From NCBI GenBank assembly GCA_034435455.1, contig DAOTXL010000102.1, forward strand, positions 15,704 to 79,703: 64,000 nt of DNA, in the 5' to 3' direction. The DNA is from Anaerolineae bacterium. Lineage in GTDB: Bacteria > Chloroflexota > Anaerolineae > JAAYZQ01. Position 1 is the stretch's first letter; every line of letters begins with the position of its first letter. A program made the translations under genes and the position numbers. The notes under the pieces are model-generated. The model was not told the DNA's origin. It searched no databases and saw only the letters and a list, made by a program, of their open reading frames with translations. Of the stretch, positions 6,260 through 37,233 are shown piece by piece.

Positions 6260-6802
6260 TTATCCCCCGCGGACGTAGGCCACTCCCCGGTCCAGCGCCC
6301 GCTTGTTCGGCTCGATGATGCGGCTGCGCTCCGGGGGGATGTGCAGGTCCAGGGTGCGCTTGATCCCTGCCAGGGGCAGGATCTCGCGCTTGCCGAGCAT
6401 CGCCCCCAACAGGACGACGTTGGCCATGCGCACATTGCCCAGCTCGGCGGCCAGTTCATTGGCCGGGACGTACACCGCTTCGATGTCGGTGCGCGGTGAC
6501 CGGTTGCGCACCAGCGTCGAGTTGACCACCAGCAGGCCACCCGGCTTGACCAGCGGCTCATACCTGTCCATCGAGGGGGGGTTCATGACGATACACATCG
6601 TCGGGTGGCTGATGATGGGCGAACCGATCTCGTCATCGGAGATGATGACGATGCAGTGCGCCGTGCCCCCGCGCATTTCCGGGCCGTAGGATGGGATCCA
6701 GGTCACGTGCCAGCCCTCATCCATGCCGGTGTAGGTCAAAAGCTGCCCGGCAAAGAGGGCACCCTGCCCTCCAAAGCCGGAGATGATGATCTCTTCGTGC
6801 AT
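6260..6802 (-). CDS. 2-oxoacid:ferredoxin oxidoreductase, gamma subunit
   Basis: IIISGFGGQGALFAGQLL..SYGPEMRGGTAHC motif block of POR/KOR gamma subunits. Start refined to ATG at 6802 (MHEEIII), which has a GGAGG RBS. Confidence 0.8.
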   Translation of the reverse strand: MHEEIIISGFGGQGALFAGQLLTYTGMDEGWHVTWIPSYGPEMRGGTAHCIVIISDDEIGSPIISHPTMCIVMNPPSMDRYEPLVKPGGLLVVNSTLVRNRSPRTDIEAVYVPANELAAELGNVRMANVVLLGAMLGKREILPLAGIKRTLDLHIPPERSRIIEPNKRALDRGVAYVRGG

Positions 6803-28760: not shown

Positions 28761-29597
28761 ATGCTGCGCGAACGAGTAACCGAAGATGTCTATGTGTTTA
28801 TCAGCGCGCTCTATGTCGAAGTAGCCGCTACCGTCGTCATGACCCCTGAGGGGGCGGTGGTCATTGACACCCTGCCCTTTCCCCAAGAGACCCGTCAGGT
28901 ACGAGAGTTTGTCCAGCGGCAGTGTCCGCGCGGTGTCCGCTACGTGGTGCTCACCCATCATCACGCCGACCACGTCTATGGCAGTTACCTGTTCCCCGAA
29001 GCGGAATTGATCGCGCACCGGCAATGCCGCCAGATTCTGGCCAAGGTTGGCGAAGAGAGCCTGAACCAGGCCAAAGCTCAGAACCCGGCCCTGGCTTCGG
29101 TCCGGTTGCGAATCCCCCAACTGGTCTTTGAGACCGAGATGCTGCTGCGGCTGCACGACAAGACGTTGCACCTCATGCACGCGCCGGGGCATTCCCCCGA
29201 CGGGATCATGGTCCACATCCGCGAGGACAAGGTGCTGGTCGCCGGGGACGTGGTCACTCCGGTGCCTTTCGTCGCCCGGGGCAACCCCGATGAACTGATG
29301 CACTCTTTGAAACAGATCAAAACCCTGAGCCTGGAAAATGTGATCCAGGGGCACGGGGGGGTTCTCCTGCGGGGGGAGATTGACGAGACGGTGGACAGCA
29401 GCATCGCCTATCTGCAGACCGTCAAGAAGCGGGTGCGGGCCATCGTGGAAAAGGGGCTGCCCCGCTCAGAGTTGAAAAAGATCGATATCGAGTCATGTGG
29501 CAAGTCGCGCATTCCCCTGGGCGGCCTGGTCCAGCGGCTGCATCAGGCCAATCTCGACTATCTATATGCTCAAGAGCTGGGCGAAGGCAACGGATGA
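28761..29597 (+). CDS. MBL-fold metallo-hydrolase
   Basis: VVLTHHHADHVYGS (HxHxDH) plus downstream His/Asp ligands. Start set to ATG 28761 (MLRERV). Confidence 0.7.
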   Translation: MLRERVTEDVYVFISALYVEVAATVVMTPEGAVVIDTLPFPQETRQVREFVQRQCPRGVRYVVLTHHHADHVYGSYLFPEAELIAHRQCRQILAKVGEESLNQAKAQNPALASVRLRIPQLVFETEMLLRLHDKTLHLMHAPGHSPDGIMVHIREDKVLVAGDVVTPVPFVARGNPDELMHSLKQIKTLSLENVIQGHGGVLLRGEIDETVDSSIAYLQTVKKRVRAIVEKGLPRSELKKIDIESCGKSRIPLGGLVQRLHQANLDYLYAQELGEGNG

Positions 29598-30184
29598 AGA
29601 GGAAAAAAGAGGAGAGGGACCGGGTCGGGGAGATCGCCGTCGCCATCGCCGGGCTGGAGCCGGCGGAGAAGCGGCGGCTGTTTGAGCTCCTGGCCGCCCA
29701 GGGAGACCTGCCGGGCCGGGCGGCTGGCCCGCCGCCGGCTCAACCGGAACTGTTCCCCACCGGCTCCCCGCCCGCCCGCCCGCCCGATTATATCCTGGTC
29801 TTTGATGGCGGCAGCCGGGGCAATCCCGGCTGGGGATATGGCAGCTATGCCATCACCCGCACACAGGATGGCCGCCGCCGCCTGGAGCGCCTGGAGTTGG
29901 GCGACGGCTATACCAGCAACGAGGCCGAATATGACACCCTCATCGCCGCCCTGCAGGACCTGATTCGGCGCATTGAGGAGGCGGGGCGCCGGCCCGAGGA
30001 GTTTGCCGTGGAGGTGCGGGGCGATAGCGCCCTGGTCATCAGCCAGTTGCAGGGCAAATGGAAAGCCAAAGAGCCGCGCATGAAAGAGCGGCGCGACCGT
30101 TGTCTCCGCCTGTTGCAACGCTTCGGGGGCGTGGCGCTCCAGGCCCAACCGCGCGAGGCCAGCGTTCAGATCTTGGGGCACTGA
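29594..30184 (+). CDS. RNase H-like protein (RNase HI fold) with N-terminal extension
   Basis: FDGGSRGNPGWGYG..SNEAEY motif block of the RNase H superfamily. The ATG overlaps the MBL gene's TGA (ATGA), indicating translational coupling. Confidence 0.6.
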   Translation: MKRKKEERDRVGEIAVAIAGLEPAEKRRLFELLAAQGDLPGRAAGPPPAQPELFPTGSPPARPPDYILVFDGGSRGNPGWGYGSYAITRTQDGRRRLERLELGDGYTSNEAEYDTLIAALQDLIRRIEEAGRRPEEFAVEVRGDSALVISQLQGKWKAKEPRMKERRDRCLRLLQRFGGVALQAQPREASVQILGH

Positions 30185-30190
30185 CATGAT

Positions 30191-30219
30191 TTGACAGATT
30201 CACCGATCCATGATAGACT
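30191..30219 (+). promoter_or_regulatory. sigma70 promoter (TTGACA-17-TAGACT) driving the T-box leader
   Basis: TTGACA at 30191-30196, 17-nt spacer, TAGACT at 30214-30219. Confidence 0.5.
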
Positions 30220-30225
30220 GTTCTT

Positions 30226-30546
30226 GCCTCTATAGCCCAAAAGGCTGTGAAGGGAACGAGTAGGCGCGGCGGAACGCCCAGAGAGCCTGGCCACAGGGTG
30301 AAAGCCGGGCGCGGAAAGCCCGCCGAATATCCTCCTGGAGCCGCCAACCGAACATCGGCTGTGGGCCGACCAGTAGGCCTGGCCGGAGTCGCCCACCGTT
30401 AGCCGGGCGCGGGTATCGCCCCGCAGGCAGGTTGCGTCCATAGAGGGCCGTACCCGATAAGGTGAGCGGTAACGCTAAGAAGGGTGGTACCGCGGGAGTC
30501 AGATGTCGGCGCTCTCGTCCCTTGGGCTGAGGGCGCTTTTTCGTCT
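30226..30546 (+). promoter_or_regulatory. T-box riboswitch leader (tRNA-sensing transcription antitermination element)
   Basis: Canonical T-box sequence AGGGTGGTACCGCGG at 30481-30495. F-box CCGTTA at 30396-30401. AG-box AGAGAG at 30280-30285 followed by GGGTGAAAG. GC hairpin plus TTTTT at about 30508-30546. AAGGAGG RBS and GTG start of the downstream ORF. Confidence 0.8.
30508..30546 (+). terminator. intrinsic terminator of the T-box leader
   Basis: GGCGCTCTCGTCCC..GGGCTGAGGGCGC hairpin followed by TTTTTCGTCTTTTCG. Its 5' arm overlaps the 3' part of the T-box antiterminator. Confidence 0.6.
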
Positions 30547-30569
30547 TTTCGTGTCAAGGAGGAAGTGGC

Positions 30570-31550
30570 GTGAAGTATGTTTCCTACTCCAAATTGAGTG
30601 GCCTGCCCCACATCATCGTGGATGGGGCGGCCCAGGCCGATACGGTCTTGACCTTGAGCCACTGGCCGGGCAGTCCTTCACCGCCCGAGTTCCGCGCCGA
30701 CACCAGTACCGAGATCGTGCTGAACTATCTGGCTTCGCCGGGCGCACAAAAGCGGTATGCCCCAAAGGTGCGCACCGTGTCGAACAACCACTTTGACGAG
30801 GATGGCCTCTGTGCGGTATGGGCCATGCTCCATCCCGAACCGGCCTTGAAACGGCGAGAACTGCTCATTGACGTGGCTACCGCCGGGGATTTCAACACCT
30901 ACCGCCGACCCCAGGCGGCCAAGGTGGTGTTCACCATCCGCAGCCACGCCGATCCGGATACCTCTCCTGTAGCCGGCAAACTCCAGGGCGATGACGACGC
31001 CGGCACTGCCCGGTATCGGGCCCTGTTGCCGCTGCTGGAAAGCTTCCTGGAAGATACCGAACACTATGGGCCTTACTGGGATGGCGAGTGGTCGGCCATG
31101 CTCAAAAGCAAGACGGCGATGGTCACCGGTCAGGTCGATCTCCACGAGGTCCCCCATGTGGATCTGGCGGTGGCCCAGGCGCCCGAACTCCTTCACCCGA
31201 TGGTCCTCTACAACAGCACCGAGCGCCTGCGGGTATTGACGGCATTGCCCGGTGGCTTTTACCTGTTGCGCTATCGCGCCGAGACGTGGGTGCAGTTCGC
31301 CAGCCGGCCGGTGATGCCCCGCGTGGACCTGACCCCGCTGCTGCCACGCCTGCAAGAGCTGGAACGGTCAGGGGCCCGCTGGACCTTTGACGGCATAGCC
31401 ACCAGGACCCCGGCCCTCCAGCCGGTAGGGCCTGATGGTCGGCCGGCCCCCAGCAGCCTGAAACTGGAGACCCTCCTCGACGAACTGGTGGCCTTTTATG
31501 AGCGGGAGCAGAACAAGCCGGCGTTGCAGTGGAATCCTTATCCAGGATAA
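30570..31550 (+). CDS. T-box-regulated protein of unknown function (326 aa)
   Basis: GTG start with AAGGAGG RBS 8 nt upstream. High GC3. No motif I can assign. Confidence 0.6.
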   Translation: MKYVSYSKLSGLPHIIVDGAAQADTVLTLSHWPGSPSPPEFRADTSTEIVLNYLASPGAQKRYAPKVRTVSNNHFDEDGLCAVWAMLHPEPALKRRELLIDVATAGDFNTYRRPQAAKVVFTIRSHADPDTSPVAGKLQGDDDAGTARYRALLPLLESFLEDTEHYGPYWDGEWSAMLKSKTAMVTGQVDLHEVPHVDLAVAQAPELLHPMVLYNSTERLRVLTALPGGFYLLRYRAETWVQFASRPVMPRVDLTPLLPRLQELERSGARWTFDGIATRTPALQPVGPDGRPAPSSLKLETLLDELVAFYEREQNKPALQWNPYPG

Positions 31551-31561
31551 AGGACGCGGAA

Positions 31562-32272
31562 ATGGCGGAGAATCTGTATCAGACAGACAGTTACATACAG
31601 GAGTTCGATGCGGTGGTGACGGCGGCAGAAGGGCAGGCGGTGGCCCTGGACCGCACAGCGTTTTACCCTGGCGGTGGCGGCCAACCCCACGATACCGGGG
31701 CCCTGACCTGGGCCGGCGGCTCGGCGCGGGTGGTCAAGGTGCAGAAGCAAGGGGAGGAGGTGTGGCACACCCTGGAGGGCGACCTGCCGCCGGTCGGGAT
31801 GCCGGTCCACGGGGCGCTGGACTGGGAGCGGCGCTATCAACTGATGCGCACCCACACCGCGCTTCACATCCTGTGCGGCATAGTCTGGCGTGACTATGGC
31901 GCCCTCGTTACCGGTGGCAACATGGACCCGCTGCAGGGCCGGATGGATTTTGAGTTCGAGACGCTGCACAAGGAGCTGGTAGCCGAGATCGAAGCCCGCG
32001 TCAACGCCGAGGTCGCCAGGGGCCGTCCGGTGCGCGTGGCACTGTTGCCCCGCGAGCAGGCGTTCCAGATCCCCGACCTGATCCGCACCAAAATCAACCT
32101 GCTGCCGCCGCACATTCAGGAGGTGCGCATTGTAGAGATCGAGGGGCTGGACCTGCAAGCCGACGGCGGTACCCACGTGGCCAACACCTCCGAGGTGGGC
32201 CGGGTGCGGGTGGTGGACTATAAGAGCAAAGGGGCGATCAACAAGCGGATCTATATCGAGTTGGAAGCATAG
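31562..32272 (+). CDS. AlaX-type tRNA editing-domain protein (threonyl/alanyl-tRNA synthetase SAD)
   Basis: LYxxDxYxxEFDAxV start and HTALHIL (HxxxH) zinc motif of the AlaX/ThrRS editing domain. The second motif reads DGGTHV (Asp in place of the usual Cys). Confidence 0.7.
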   Translation: MAENLYQTDSYIQEFDAVVTAAEGQAVALDRTAFYPGGGGQPHDTGALTWAGGSARVVKVQKQGEEVWHTLEGDLPPVGMPVHGALDWERRYQLMRTHTALHILCGIVWRDYGALVTGGNMDPLQGRMDFEFETLHKELVAEIEARVNAEVARGRPVRVALLPREQAFQIPDLIRTKINLLPPHIQEVRIVEIEGLDLQADGGTHVANTSEVGRVRVVDYKSKGAINKRIYIELEA

Positions 32273-32657
32273 GAGAACAGGGACCATGCCTGAGCGGAGT
32301 GCCGATTGGATGGTCCAGGCCGACAAGAGCTGACCGAGAAACAACAGCAGGGCAACCTTTTTGTGCAGCAGGCCCTGCCAGGGGGGATTTTGCTGGGCGC
32401 ACGTCAGGGCTACCGGGAGGCCGATACAACCCTGCCGAGAACAAAACCGGAGGAACCGGTTATCCAGAGAGCAAGGACTCTCTCTGCGCTCTGATTCGCC
32501 ACCCACGTGAGGGGGAGCAGGGCACAAGGGCAGAATCTGTCAAAGAGAGGAGGATCCCGAGGAGATGCGAAACCACGAATTGCCATCTCCATACTCGATT
32601 GCCGGCTCCGAGATCGTCATCCCACAAAAAGATCACACGATTTCGGAGGAGGAGCTA

Positions 32658-35600
32658 TGTTTGAGTCGGTACCCAATCAGGTAGATTTTGTCCAACTGGA
32701 GCATGAGGTGCTCGACTTTTGGAAACAGACCGCTGCCTTCCAAAAGTTGCGCCAAAAAAACCAGGGGAACAAGAAATTCTCCTTTATTGACGGCCCTATC
32801 ACGGCCAACAACCCGATGGGTGTCCATCACGCCTGGGGGCGCACCTACAAGGACCTGTTCTTGCGCTACAAGGCGATGCGGGGCTACGACCAGCGCTGGC
32901 AGAACGGCTTTGACTGCCAGGGGCTGTGGGTCGAGGTCAATGTGGAGCGCGACATGGGCTTCAAGACGAAAAGGGACATCGAGACCTATGGCCTGGCCGA
33001 GTTCGTCAACCTGTGCAAACAGCGCGTCCTCGAATTTTCGGCCGTCCAGACGGAACAATCGATCCGCCTGGGCTACTGGATGGACTGGAACGACCCGGCC
33101 TTTCTCCGCGACCTGAAAGCCAAAATGGCCCACGACCCCCTGCAACGGATCACGGTGAACGGTCCCCACGGCCCGGTGACCGGCACCGTGGAGCAGATCG
33201 TCGGGCGGCTGGGTCTGCCGGAACTGGGCGGCAGCTACTTTACCTTTAGCGACGAGAACAACTATACCATCTGGGCGGCCTTGAAGAAATGCCACGAAAA
33301 CGGCTGGATCTACAAAGGGACCGATGTGATGCCCTGGTGTCCCCGCTGCGGCACCGGCATCAGCCAGCACGAGATCGTCACCGAGGGCTATCAGGAACTG
33401 ACCCACCCCAGCATCTTTGTGCGTTTTCCCCTGCGCCATCGCCCCGGCTACCTTCCCTCTGCTCAGGGCGGGGAGGATCTGTTGGTGTGGACCACCACCC
33501 CCTGGACCCTGACCAGCAACGTCGCCGCGGCGGTCCACCCCGACCTGCCCTACGTCCTGGTGGAGAACCAGGGACACCGCTTCTGGCTGAGCAAGGGGGC
33601 GCTGGATAACGCCCTGCGCGGCCCCTACACCATCCTGGATGAAAAGCCCGGTGCGGCGCTGGAGGGGTGGACCTACGAGGGCCCCTTTGACGAACTGCCG
33701 GCCCAGCAGCAGAGCGGTGCGGCAGCGGCGCATCGCATCATTCTGTGGGACCAGGTGGGCGAGGCGGAGGGCACAGGCATTGTGCACATCGCCCCTGGCT
33801 GCGGCGCCGAGGACCTGGCCCTGGGCAGAGGAGCGGACCTGCCGGCCATCGCGCCGCTGGACGAAAATGGCCTCTTTCTCGACGGATTTGCGTGGCTGAC
33901 CGGCAGGAGCGTTTACGATTCGGCGCAACCGATCTTTGACAACCTGGCGCACAAGGGCCTCCTCTACCGCCTGGAGGACTACACCCACCGCTACCCGGTC
34001 TGCTGGCGCTGCCAGAGTGAACTGGTCTTCCGCCTGGTGGACGAGTGGTTTATCGGCATGGGCGACCTGCTGGACAGGCCCTACGACCAGCTCACGCCGG
34101 AGGAAAAGGCGACACGGCTGCGCTACCTGATCATGGATTCGGTGCAGGAGACGCGCTGGATCCCCGATTTTGGCTTCGAGCGGGAGATGGACTGGCTGCG
34201 CAACATGCACGACTGGATGATCAGCAAAAAGCGCTACTATGGCCTGGCCCTGCCCATCTGGGAGTGCCACCTGTGCGGCTGGTTCGACGTCATCGGCAGC
34301 AAGGAGGAGCTGAAAGCACGGGCTGTCGCCGGTTGGGAGGAGTTCGAGGGCCACACCCCGCACCGGCCCTACGTGGACGCGGTCAAGATCCGCTGCGAAC
34401 GGTGCGGCGCCGAGATCGGCCGCATCCCCGACGTGGGCAACCCCTGGCTCGATGCCGGCATCGTCGCCTACTCCACGTTGCAGTACCGCACCAACCGCGA
34501 CTACTGGCGGCAATGGTTCCCGGCAGATCTCATCACCGAGAGCTTTCCGGGGCAGTTCCGCAACTGGTTCTATTCCATGCTGGCCATGAGCACCATCATG
34601 GAGCGACGGGCCCCCTTCCGCACGGTGCAGACCTACGCCACCCTCCTGGCCGAGGATGGCCGGCCGATGCATAAGAGCTGGGGCAATGCCATCGAGTTCA
34701 ACGACGCAGCCGATACGATGGGCGTGGATGTGATGCGCTGGATGTACTGCGCCCACAAGCCGGAGGTCAACCTCCTCTTCGGCTACCAACTGGCCGACGA
34801 CACCCGCCGCCGCTTCCTGCTGCCGCTGTGGAACGTCTACTCCTTCTTTGTCACCTACGCCAACCTGGATCACTGGCAGCCGGCCGATCCCCAATCGCCA
34901 ATATCCCATCGCCAATTGCCAGAACTCGACCGCTGGATCCTGGCCCGCCTCAACCAGGTCATCGCCGGCGTTACCGAGCGCCTGGACGACTATGACCCCT
35001 ACGGCGCGACGCTGGCAGTAGAGCCGTTCCTGGATGACCTGACCAACTGGTATGTGCGCCGCAGCCGCCGCCGTTTCTGGAAGAGCGAACAGGACGCCGA
35101 CAAAGAGGCCGCCTACGCCACCCTGTACCACGTCTTGCTGACATTGAGCAAACTGTTGGCTCCGTTCGTGCCCTTTGTGACCGAAAAGATGTACCAGAAC
35201 CTGGCCCGCTCCGCCGACCGGAGTGCGGCCGAGAGCGTCCACCTGTGCGACTGGCCGACCGCCGAGGAGAGCCTGGTGGACCGGAAGCTGCTGGACCGCA
35301 TGGCCCTGGCGATGCAGATCGCCGCCCTGGGCCGCTCGGCGCGGAGCACCTCCAACATTAAACTGCGGCAACCGCTCGCCAAAGCGCTGATCTACGCCGG
35401 GGAACGGGCTGCCGATCTGGGGCCGCTGGCCGACCTGGTGGCCGACGAGCTCAACGTCAAGGCGCTCGAGTTCGTGGCGACCGAGGCGGAGCTGGTGCAG
35501 TACGAGATCGGCCTGTTGCCCAACCTGCTGGGTCCCAAACATGGTAAACGGTTCCCGCTGCTGCGCCAGGCCGTCGCTGCCGCCGACGCCACGGCGCTGG

Positions 35601-36040
35601 CCCGCCGCTTCCAGGCCGGCCTGAGCGCCATCCTGGAACTCAACGACGGCGGCCCGGCGGTGGAACTGCTGCCGCAGGAGGTGGAGGTCCGCCTTCACGG
35701 GCGCGAAGGCTATGCCGTGGCCGGGGAAAAGGGCCTGGTGGTGGCGGTAGACGTGACCCTCACACCCGAGCTGGCCCGCGAGGGGCTGGCCCGCGACCTG
35801 GTGCGCCGGGTGCAGACGATGCGCAAGGAGGCCGGCTTTGAGCTCAACGACCGCATCGTCACCTTCTACGACGCCGATGACGAGCTCAAATCGGCCATCG
35901 CCGAGTGGGCCGGTTACGTCCAGGCCGAGACGTTGAGCGTGGAGCTGGTGCCCGGCCCCGTGCCCGCCGATGTCGCCCGCCGGGAGTCGTTCAAACTGGA
36001 GGGGCACCCGGTGACGCTGGGGATCAAAAAGGGGGTGTGA
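32658..36040 (+). CDS. ileS: isoleucine--tRNA ligase
   Basis: PxxNxxxHxGH (PITANNPMGVHHAWGR), KMSKS-region (KSWGNAI-type) and CP1 editing domain. 1127 aa from ATG 32658 (MFESVPN). Confidence 0.9.
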
Positions 36041-36297: not shown

Positions 36298-36639
36298 ATG
36301 GCAGTGAGAAGACCCGACGTGCTCCGGTCGTTCCTGGAGAGCGAGCGGGCGCGGCTGGAAGCTGTAATCGCCCAAATGGATGCTGAGGGCGGGACCAACC
36401 TGGGCCTTGGCAATCACATGGCCGACGATGCCACCGAGGCCTTTGAGCAGGCCAAAGAACAGGCCCTCCACTGGAATGCGGAGCAGTTGTTGAAACAGGT
36501 CAACGACGCGCTGGAGCGGTTTCAGCAGGGGACCTATGGCCTGTGCATTCAGTGCGGGGATGAGATCGATCCGGCGCGGCTGAAAGCCCTGCCCTATGCG
36601 ACGCTGTGCCTGCGTTGCCAGCAGCGGATCAAACCATAG
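36298..36639 (+). CDS. DksA/TraR family C4-type zinc-finger protein
   Basis: C-terminal CxxCx17CxxC (CIQCGDEI..CLRCQQ) preceded by a coiled-coil region. 113 aa. Confidence 0.7.
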   Translation: MAVRRPDVLRSFLESERARLEAVIAQMDAEGGTNLGLGNHMADDATEAFEQAKEQALHWNAEQLLKQVNDALERFQQGTYGLCIQCGDEIDPARLKALPYATLCLRCQQRIKP

Positions 36640-36654
36640 CGGGCGTAGAGGACC

Positions 36655-37233
36655 TTGCGATCCAACCATCTCCGAAACTGGCTGCTGTTGGTCGGTCTGG
36701 CATGCGTTTTCCTGGCCCTGGACCAGGGCAGCAAGTGGCTGGTCCGGCAAAACCTGGCCGTCGGCGAGGCATGGGCACCCATCCCTGCCCTATCCCGGTT
36801 CTTCACCTTTACCCACGTGCAGAATACCGGCGTGGCCTTTGGCCAATTTCCAGGGCTGGGCTGGTTGTTCATGCTGGTCAACCTGACGGTCCTGGTGGGC
36901 ATTCTGGCCTACTATCCACGCCTTCCGGCCGGGCTATGGTCCCTGCGCCTGGCCGCAGCCCTCATCCTGGCCGGTGACCTGGGCAACGTGATAGACCGGC
37001 TGCGCGCCACCTGGCTCATCGCCCAGAGCACCGGCAACGTGTGGGCGGCACTGCCTCAGGCCTACGTGACCGACTTTGTCGACATCAAGATCTGGCCGGT
37101 CTGGAACGTCGCCGATATGTGTGTGGTCGGCGGGGTGGCGATCCTGGCCTGGACGTTGTGGCGAACCGACCGGATAGCCGAGGGCCAGGGGGTAATGACC
37201 GACGACGGGGGGGCGGGGGTCAGGAGGGAATGA
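36655..37233 (+). CDS. lspA: lipoprotein signal peptidase (signal peptidase II)
   Basis: Four TM segments and conserved NTGVAFG, GDLGNVIDR, WPVWNVAD motifs. Classic ileS-lspA linkage. Confidence 0.8.
   Translation: MRSNHLRNWLLLVGLACVFLALDQGSKWLVRQNLAVGEAWAPIPALSRFFTFTHVQNTGVAFGQFPGLGWLFMLVNLTVLVGILAYYPRLPAGLWSLRLAAALILAGDLGNVIDRLRATWLIAQSTGNVWAALPQAYVTDFVDIKIWPVWNVADMCVVGGVAILAWTLWRTDRIAEGQGVMTDDGGAGVRRE

Follow-up and report, generated by a model that had tools for sequence, protein, structure and literature searches.

An isoleucine T-box leader upstream of DUF6687, an Asp-variant AlaX-M-like gene and ileS in an Anaerolineae lineage

Introduction

T-box leaders on isoleucyl-tRNA synthetase (IleRS) genes, such as those of Staphylococcus aureus, Bacillus subtilis and Dehalococcoides, are built from a Stem I with a specifier loop, an F box, a T-box sequence and a terminator/antiterminator pair, and the isoleucine (Ile) T-box reported on ileS of Dehalococcoides placed this regulation in the Chloroflexi (PMC2494555). 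Here we describe a T-box leader in a 64,000-nucleotide stretch (hereafter the window) of an Anaerolineae bacterium (Chloroflexota; assembly GCA_034435455.1, contig DAOTXL010000102.1, positions 15,704 to 79,703), which precedes genes for a DUF6687 protein and an AlaX-M-like protein and then ileS. The leader shares with the known ileS leaders the general architecture, the AUC specifier, the regulated enzyme and a phylum that already has Ile T-boxes, whereas it differs from them in the one or two extra genes that stand before ileS in this lineage, in a C on the 3' side of the specifier, in a 48-nt insertion after the F box and in a score below the Rfam gathering score.

The closest described relatives of the second extra gene product are the AlaX-M proteins of Pyrococcus horikoshii (PH0108, PDB 2e1b) and P. 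furiosus (9iuw), which are similar in size and have the same GGGQ-containing N-domain, tRNA_SAD core and HxxxH motif. Unlike these, the window protein has DGGTH in place of CXGXH, is encoded in an Ile T-box/ileS operon and not in an alanine-related context, and belongs to a group scoring at or below the cut-off of the AlaXM equivalog model. The HXXXH and CXGXH motifs have been described as universally conserved in the editing-domain family, the Cys being crucial for proofreading (2025 study, PMC12003907). A survey of 23,260 free-standing AlaX proteins (2026, PMC13149037) linked them to the biosynthesis of Cys, His and Thr as well as to biosynthetic clusters, and makes no mention of isoleucine, IleRS or T-boxes. 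BesG and AlfB, covered in the same work, are likewise free-standing AlaX homologs for which genomic context, not the family name, predicts the substrate; unlike these two, which belong to biosynthetic gene clusters for non-canonical amino acids, the window gene lies beside a housekeeping synthetase under a riboswitch. Our literature search found no paper that links a T-box to AlaX and none that mentions DUF6687.

A complete T-box leader below the Rfam gathering score

The original prediction, made from the nucleotide sequence, had placed a promoter, the T-box motifs, a terminator and the start of a 326-aa open reading frame in this region, and every one of these features proved to be present, all on the + strand. 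Thus, the promoter scan gave a sigma-70-type promoter, TTGACA-17-TAGACT with a TG extension (30191-30219; 10/12 matches), in a search that returned 2 sites against 0.4 expected in shuffles, and a comparably positioned promoter is readable in the loci of two relatives (L001 and L083). The motifs comprise an AG box (AGAGAG, 30280-30285), which forms the AG bulge of Stem I, an F box (CCGTTA, 30396-30401) and the T-box sequence AGGGTGGTACCGCGG (also given as AGGGUGGUACCGCGG; 30481-30495). When the leader was scanned against the Rfam T-box covariance model (RF00230) at a permissive threshold, the check that had been proposed for it, a match covering model positions 1-219 of 219 was obtained at 30238-30525 (71.5 bits, E 1.2e-15), which confirms that the T-box is real. 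The complete leader, consisting of Stem I, Stem II, F box, Stem III, antiterminator and terminator, extends over 30238-30541, and the RF00230 alignment places the 48 inserted nucleotides after the F box.

Stem I (30243-30345) contains a GA/K-turn motif, an AGUA...GAA specifier loop, the AG bulge and a distal loop GGUGAAA, and forms as expected both in the single-sequence fold, which had been proposed as a check, and in the RF00230 alignment. The consensus fold of 10 orthologous leaders moreover showed compensatory changes at 6 of 26 pairs. In the 3' part of the leader, the consensus fold is an antiterminator helix (30481-30522) that carries the T-box sequence and a 7-nt UGGUACC bulge, whose UGGU pairs with the NCCA end of the tRNA; a covariance model built from this element (model R1) scored 82.4 bits at the window antiterminator. 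The single sequence has as its minimum-energy structure the intrinsic terminator instead (30508-30541), a hairpin followed by the U tract TTTTT at 30537-30541, which was also detected by the terminator scan and is kept in the sister leaders. The 5' arm of the terminator overlaps the 3' arm of the antiterminator, and the two structures are mutually exclusive, the strand CUCUCGUCCC being common to both. No tRNA genes were found in the window.

The default scan at the Rfam gathering threshold (93 bits in Rfam 15) reported no T-box in the whole window, nor in 11 sister genomes (L001-L011), so that all 12 leaders of the clade scanned in that way are missed. The leader of the window scores far beyond chance, yet it is invisible to threshold-based annotation. 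Because the leader scores fall below the gathering score, routine annotation would report no T-box in these Chloroflexota genomes, and automated annotation of the phylum under-reports T-boxes.

The specifier codon is read as AUC

The specifier loop lies at 30325-30332, as had been claimed, and reads GAAUAUCC (GAA-U-AUC-C); the RF00230 register puts the codon at loop positions 5-7, that is, AUC (Ile) at 30329-30331 (+). The original prediction had left a choice between AUC and UAU (Tyr), which was decided by comparing 12 genome leaders and 55 further metagenome leaders (about 60 related leaders). In all 12 genome leaders the loop is GAA-N-AUC-C, N being U, A or G, and the metagenome leaders with a readable Stem I all have the same pattern (33 by pattern matching, the rest by direct reading). 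The AUC alternative was upheld by its invariance, whereas UAU was rejected, as the first base of that codon is the variable one. A third register, UCC (Ser), was also rejected: given the helix underneath, the loop retains AUC and one further base, and a UCC codon would abut that helix with nothing unpaired in between. In the lower-GC sister lineage, this helix changes from GGGA:UCCY to GGAA:UUCC, a compensatory change that fixes the helix boundary and hence the specifier register. From this comparison the specifier is assigned as AUC (Ile), in agreement with the downstream ileS, and the A73 discriminator earlier derived from the UGGU sequence is compatible with it.

Gene content of the operon among relatives

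Three samples of loci were assembled. The sample anchored on DUF6687 consisted of 80 loci from species-representative genomes (11 of Anaerolineae type and 69 from other phyla), the sample anchored on the leader of 55 loci from a metagenome scan for the Stem III/T-box sequence of the clade, and the sample anchored on AlaXM of 7 contexts. All 11 Anaerolineae-type loci have the T-box upstream of DUF6687 and ileS downstream of it; AlaXM lies between DUF6687 and ileS in 8 of them and is missing from the other 3. Among the 55 leader-anchored loci, the first gene after the T-box was AlaXM in 34, DUF6687 in 17 and IleS in 1. Where such loci reached ileS (28 cases), the commonest arrangement was AlaXM-ileS (19), followed by the arrangement of the window, DUF6687-AlaXM-ileS (4), by DUF6687-ileS (4) and by a HEPN/nucleotidyltransferase pair before ileS (1). 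Every one of the 7 AlaXM-anchored genes stands directly upstream of ileS with a T-box upstream, 3 with and 4 without DUF6687.

Each locus has a single T-box, which invariably precedes the first cargo gene, and the operon ends in ileS in every relative with sufficient downstream sequence, except for one ilvB-type paralogous leader. The cargo genes are often packed tightly. DUF6687 overlaps the next gene in 5 of the 11 genome loci, its stop overlapping the ileS start by 8 nt in L001 and L010 (ATGTTTGA) and an ATGA overlap joining it to AlaXM in three further loci; where a cargo gene abuts or overlaps ileS in relatives, the gap ranges from -8 to +19 nt. The three architectures are intermingled on a rough IleS tree, an indication of repeated gain or loss of both cargo genes. 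What stays constant across the relatives is the Ile T-box together with ileS, and the leader is therefore the ileS leader. The earlier view that the T-box controls the two upstream genes, with ileS merely downstream, was not borne out, the cargo being what varies. A T-box motif match found by regular expression in one of the DUF6687 loci from other phyla (L080) was rejected, as the covariance model did not confirm it.

The exceptional leader is on a metagenome contig (Ga0066797_1008340, L098), where the same leader type with the AUC specifier precedes an acetolactate-synthase-type, thiamine pyrophosphate-dependent enzyme gene (ilvB-like); at least one paralogous member of the leader family thus stands before a gene of branched-chain amino-acid biosynthesis. 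In the locus of one metagenome-assembled genome (L011, 6001-10194), DUF6687 is cut short by a stop at 6744 and IleS is matched over part of its length (residues 251-755, 67%), and these truncations are either pseudogenes or long-read assembly errors.

The spacer between alaXM and ileS

In the window, the AlaX-like gene is separated from the ileS ATG by 384 nt (32273-32656, +). By tblastn and blastn against the intact HEPN/nucleotidyltransferase cassette of one relative (L137), which sits between T-box and ileS there (Pfam HEPN and NTP_transf_2), two adjoining fragments were recognized in this spacer: the first ~16 codons of the HEPN gene (32280-32327, 75% identical to L137) and the last ~24 codons of the nucleotidyltransferase gene (32324-32395, 62% identical). 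The spacer is thus decayed inserted DNA, an internally deleted relic of a toxin-antitoxin-like cassette of HEPN and minimal nucleotidyltransferase genes, and not a regulatory region. A frameshifted HEPN relic also occurs in the 499-nt spacer of L003. Across the relatives the spacer ranges from 11 to 499 nt and has no conserved element, and in the window spacer (32273-32656) there was no Rfam match, no promoter-like site, no + strand terminator and no second leader.

An AlaX-M-like protein with Asp in place of the conserved Cys

The gene at 31562-32272 (+) encodes a 236-aa protein that matches the AlaXM equivalog model NF040865 with 300.2 bits against a cut-off of 300; its ortholog in the sister lineage (L133) reaches 286 bits. 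As the original prediction had stated, this is an AlaX-type gene with an HxxxH motif and with DGGTHV for the usual CGGTHV. The HXXXH motif is HTALH at residues 98-102, kept in the orthologues, and DGGTHV begins at D201 (codon 32162-32164), a position that by alignment is occupied by Cys (CGGTH) in the solved AlaRS and AlaX-M structures. The CXGXH motif is absent in the whole clade, all 9 genome copies (the window and 8 orthologues) having DGGTH, and the replacement of Cys by Asp is fixed there. Moreover, Asp was found in 118 of the 120 closest database homologs and in all 33 full-length metagenome copies, including a lineage whose IleS is only 36-44% identical. Identity of AlaXM across the clade is 76-93%. 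Loss of the 'WQAGS' pocket motif was considered as a further distinguishing feature and rejected, the solved AlaX-M proteins being without it too.

The association of this Asp-variant AlaX-M-like protein with Ile T-box/ileS operons is tight and specific, and the Asp variant is the more noteworthy half of the finding. For researchers on editing domains, it offers a natural Cys-to-Asp variant together with a testable hypothesis of an alternative substrate. We infer that it is an aminoacyl-tRNA deacylase whose output would help at times of IleRS induction.

A predicted remote DHH/DHHA1-like fold for DUF6687

The first gene of the operon (30570-31550, +) has a ribosome-binding site AAGGAGG at 30556-30562, 7 nt before its GTG start at 30570, and encodes a 326-aa protein that matches the Pfam family DUF6687 (PF20392) with 270.8 bits against a cut-off of 27 (E 2e-80, profile positions 4-334 of 339), as do all 61 diverse family members collected. 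It matched no NCBIfam model, and no solved relative was found by sequence. It is not a known biosynthesis or transport protein, an identity that the original prediction had named as a refuting outcome. The family comprises about 1,100 clusters at 50% identity, and the nearest relatives outside the ileS-linked cluster are at most 48% identical to the query; within the clade the identity is 69-90%.

The structure prediction that had been suggested as a check gave a confident result: the AlphaFold2 model computed from the 61-sequence alignment had a predicted local distance difference test score (pLDDT) of 97.6 and a predicted template modelling score (pTM) of 0.94, and nearly all its Foldseek matches in the PDB were DHH/DHHA1 phosphoesterases, the best being the PAP phosphatase 8a8k (E 9.5e-5), with further matches to GdpP, Nrn, TM1595, DhhP, NrnA and RecJ. 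These phosphoesterases (8a8k, NrnA, GdpP, PggH and RecJ) are the best structural matches of the model, and DUF6687 appears to resemble them in a two-domain layout, with conserved Asp/His residues after the β-strands of the N-domain and conserved Arg residues in the C-domain. Among 55 members of at most 48% identity, the conserved N-domain residues are D18, S30-H31, D44, H74-x-D76-x-D78 (encoded at 30789-30803) and D107, which by secondary-structure position lie in loops after β-strands 1-3 or on adjacent helices; those of the C-domain are R221, R236, R251 and S295. Judged by clustering derived from these secondary-structure positions, the conserved residues look like a metal site and a phosphate-binding surface, and this pattern favours a hydrolase over a purely structural tRNA-binding module. 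On the basis of the model, DUF6687 appears to be a remote DHH/DHHA1-like protein, not filed as a member of the DHH family, and its predicted fold points to a phosphoesterase and not to an editing factor. This is a first structural assignment for the family, and the operon gives it a first physiological context, presumably induction by uncharged tRNA-Ile.

Outside Chloroflexota, the neighbours of DUF6687 include no conserved partner and only lineage-specific synteny; by eye, they were Ffh, FKBP, DinB-like, SDR, luciferase-like monooxygenase, LysR, HD-domain and Rieske proteins. A Rieske oxygenase gene neighbours DUF6687 in two Rhodospirillales loci (L068 and L069, by eye), and single fusions of NTP_transferase with DUF6687 and of DUF6687 with Rieske (P0177 and P0167) are too few to interpret. 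What looked like a tandem duplication of DUF6687 proved to be an artefact, produced when off-frame open reading frames that overlap were clustered.

Regulation of the operon and alternative explanations

Collectively, it may be concluded that a classical tRNA-Ile T-box attenuation leader very probably controls one operon, DUF6687-alaXM-like-ileS, and we hold the RNA and the operon to be a standard Ile T-box attenuator on ileS with high confidence. This reading stands on what is observed: the elements of the RNA, its specificity for Ile and a gene order that is conserved and often includes overlaps. Transcription would start at the promoter (30191-30219). With charged tRNA-Ile(GAU), the terminator (30508-30541) would form and transcription would stop, whereas uncharged tRNA-Ile would be bound at two places, its anticodon by the Stem I specifier AUC and its free NCCA end by the UGGU bulge, a pairing that would stabilise the antiterminator and allow RNA polymerase to read into the three genes. 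As had been proposed, both DUF6687 and the AlaX-type gene are thereby placed under the control of tRNA-Ile charging. The slot between leader and ileS has taken up extra genes in this Anaerolineae lineage, the AlaX-M-like gene, with its catalytic/zinc-ligand Cys changed to Asp, being the most constant passenger, DUF6687 being present in about a third of the operons, and the HEPN/nucleotidyltransferase pair being an occasional passenger of which only the relic in the spacer is left in the window. The regulation is of a known kind, and the switch itself, being textbook, adds little; the cargo is unreported, its function is what we infer, and the value of the locus lies in this cargo and in the finding on the Rfam threshold.

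The base that directly follows the specifier codon on its 3' side is commonly a purine in T-box leaders. Several observations weigh against this account of the leader and the operon: the corresponding base here (30332) is an invariant C in all related leaders, the RF00230 score of 71.5 is below the gathering score of 93, and co-transcription of ileS across the 384-nt spacer is, for the window genome itself, likely and no stronger than that. A stable hairpin (about 32348-32382, +; about -14 kcal/mol, GCAGGGC...GCCCUGC, with a short weak U-run at a distance) also lies in the spacer, and, non-canonical as a terminator, it could dampen read-through into ileS. This hairpin with its weak downstream U-run would suit a different arrangement, in which the T-box controls only DUF6687 and the AlaX-like gene while ileS has its own promoter in the spacer and is linked to them by position alone; a spacer of this length (384 nt) from foreign DNA could have brought or created such a promoter. 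However, the spacer is without a promoter-like site, a + strand terminator or an RNA family match, relatives differ in its length (11 to 499 nt) and share no element in it, and in them the same genes abut or overlap ileS (-8 to +19 nt) with a single T-box upstream, so that we regard this arrangement as very improbable and retain the single operon. With respect to the cargo, further points tell against a functional tie. DUF6687 and AlaXM were repeatedly gained or lost, and neither need be functionally tied to IleRS; all ileS-linked DUF6687 proteins fall in one 50%-identity cluster, and the association may trace to few evolutionary events; and the linkage of homologs that had been proposed as a check holds for T-box and ileS in 11 of 11 Anaerolineae-type loci but fails in the 69 DUF6687 loci of other phyla, which have no T-box (by motif search and model R1), AlaX or ileS nearby.

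Both cargo genes could accordingly be unrelated hitch-hikers at a permissive insertion site between leader and ileS, without adaptive meaning. What the slot holds differs between relatives (DUF6687, AlaXM, the HEPN/nucleotidyltransferase pair and perhaps an RNase H-like gene), with repeated gains and losses and a decayed insert in the window itself; since neither gene is stably kept even among close relatives and the slot has also housed a toxin-antitoxin-like pair, hitch-hiking is a serious rival as an explanation of their presence. In contrast, DUF6687 (69-90% identical) and AlaXM (76-93%) are under strong purifying selection, similar to IleS, the stop/start overlaps suggest translational coupling, and AlaXM was retained across an apparent replacement of IleS, and we therefore consider hitch-hiking possible, if on the unlikely side. 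For AlaXM, a dedicated role may be imagined as a trans-editing factor for IleRS/tRNA-Ile and not as a Ser-tRNA-Ala deacylase, one that clears mis-acylated tRNA-Ile, commoner when isoleucine is scarce, which would explain its wiring to an Ile T-box. In all 7 AlaXM contexts the gene comes after an Ile T-box and directly before ileS, a sister lineage whose IleS is only 36-44% identical has kept the module, DGGTH replaces a CXGXH motif reported to be universal and with a Cys crucial for proofreading (PMC12003907), the scores of 300.2 and 286 do no more than equal the AlaXM equivalog cut-off of 300 or fall short of it, and AlaX members with non-alanine roles, BesG and AlfB, are documented (PMC13149037). 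However, the editing motifs in connective peptide 1 (CP1) of the IleRS look intact by eye, which leaves no evident gap in editing, at least seven related operons (DUF6687-ileS) are without AlaXM, and membership of an operon can be a historical accident, as the toxin-antitoxin-like pair in the same slot of L137 illustrates. The dedicated role, and with it this explanation of the Ile T-box wiring, seems to us unlikely. As for DUF6687, we tentatively give somewhat less than an even chance to a DHH-type phosphoesterase that uses divalent metal and acts on a nucleotide-like substrate. Two negatives weigh against it: Pfam DHH (PF01368) and DHHA1 (PF02272) gave no match even at E <= 10 in any of the 61 members, and, of the motifs that mark the superfamily (DXD, D, DHH and D in the DHH domain, GGGH in DHHA1), DHH and GGGH are absent from the protein. 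It might instead be a non-catalytic tRNA-binding module resembling the C-Ala domain, acting in trans as partner of the AlaX-like protein and supplying the grip on the tRNA elbow that AlaX-M-type proteins lack. Unlike C-Ala of AlaRS and AlaX-L (PDB 3g98), however, DUF6687 has an extra N-terminal domain with an acidic/His cluster, typical of a metal site and kept by the family, and is widespread without an AlaX partner (69 loci in other phyla with no AlaX nearby); most AlaXM-ileS operons are without DUF6687 (19 of 28), some DUF6687-ileS operons are without AlaXM, and enzymatic DHH proteins match DUF6687 better than C-Ala does. Both the module itself and the elbow grip ascribed to it are hence highly doubtful. 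The most far-reaching proposal joins the two genes as new accessory factors of isoleucyl-tRNA synthesis in the Ile T-box operon of this lineage: the Cys-to-Asp deacylase would have been re-targeted from tRNA-Ala to mis-acylated tRNA-Ile and be induced when low isoleucine makes IleRS errors most likely, and DUF6687, as founding member of a cryptic DHH/DHHA1 branch, would remove a by-product of aminoacylation (pyrophosphate (PPi), diadenosine tetraphosphate (Ap4A) or a species derived from the aminoacyl-adenylate). We judge this combination, in all its parts together, decidedly unlikely; if true, either factor would be a previously unrecognised quality- or flux-control layer on a class I synthetase.

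ileS and neighbouring genes

The invariant distal gene, ileS (32657-36040, +), encodes a protein of 1127 aa that matches TIGR00392 with 698.3 bits against a cut-off of 621.4 and contains the Pfam domains tRNA-synt_1, Anticodon_1 and, at the C-terminus, DUF5915, as in type-2 (MupA-like) enzymes. The CP1 editing motifs that look intact by eye are WTTTPWTL and GTGIVHIAPGCGAED. This IleS is atypical in that the TIGR00392 match comes in two stretches, only from residue 189, and in that PMGVHHAWGR stands at its HIGH region. Its identity with the IleS encoded behind the same leader and AlaXM in the low-GC sister lineage (L133, 3413-6607) is only ~39%, and so low an identity behind the same module suggests that the synthetase may have been replaced in place.

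After ileS, at 36298-37233 (+), the window has a gene for a DksA/YteA-type zinc-finger protein and lspA (signal peptidase II), the classical ileS-lspA linkage, which L081 and L143 share. Downstream of ileS, either directly after it or one gene further, L081 (13172-15815), L007, L009, L142 and L144 encode an additional class I synthetase of ~880 aa, a divergent IleS-like paralog that is absent from the window; the L081 paralog scores 266 bits with TIGR00392 against the cut-off of 621 and has no DUF5915.

On the other side of the operon, an RNase H-like (RVT_3) gene with an N-terminal extension (29495-30184, +) ends 6 nt before the T-box promoter. Together with a metallo-β-lactamase-fold gene, it is syntenic in many relatives, and in one locus (L120) an Ile T-box of the same type directly precedes an RNase H-like gene, the gene downstream of that leader belonging to the same family.

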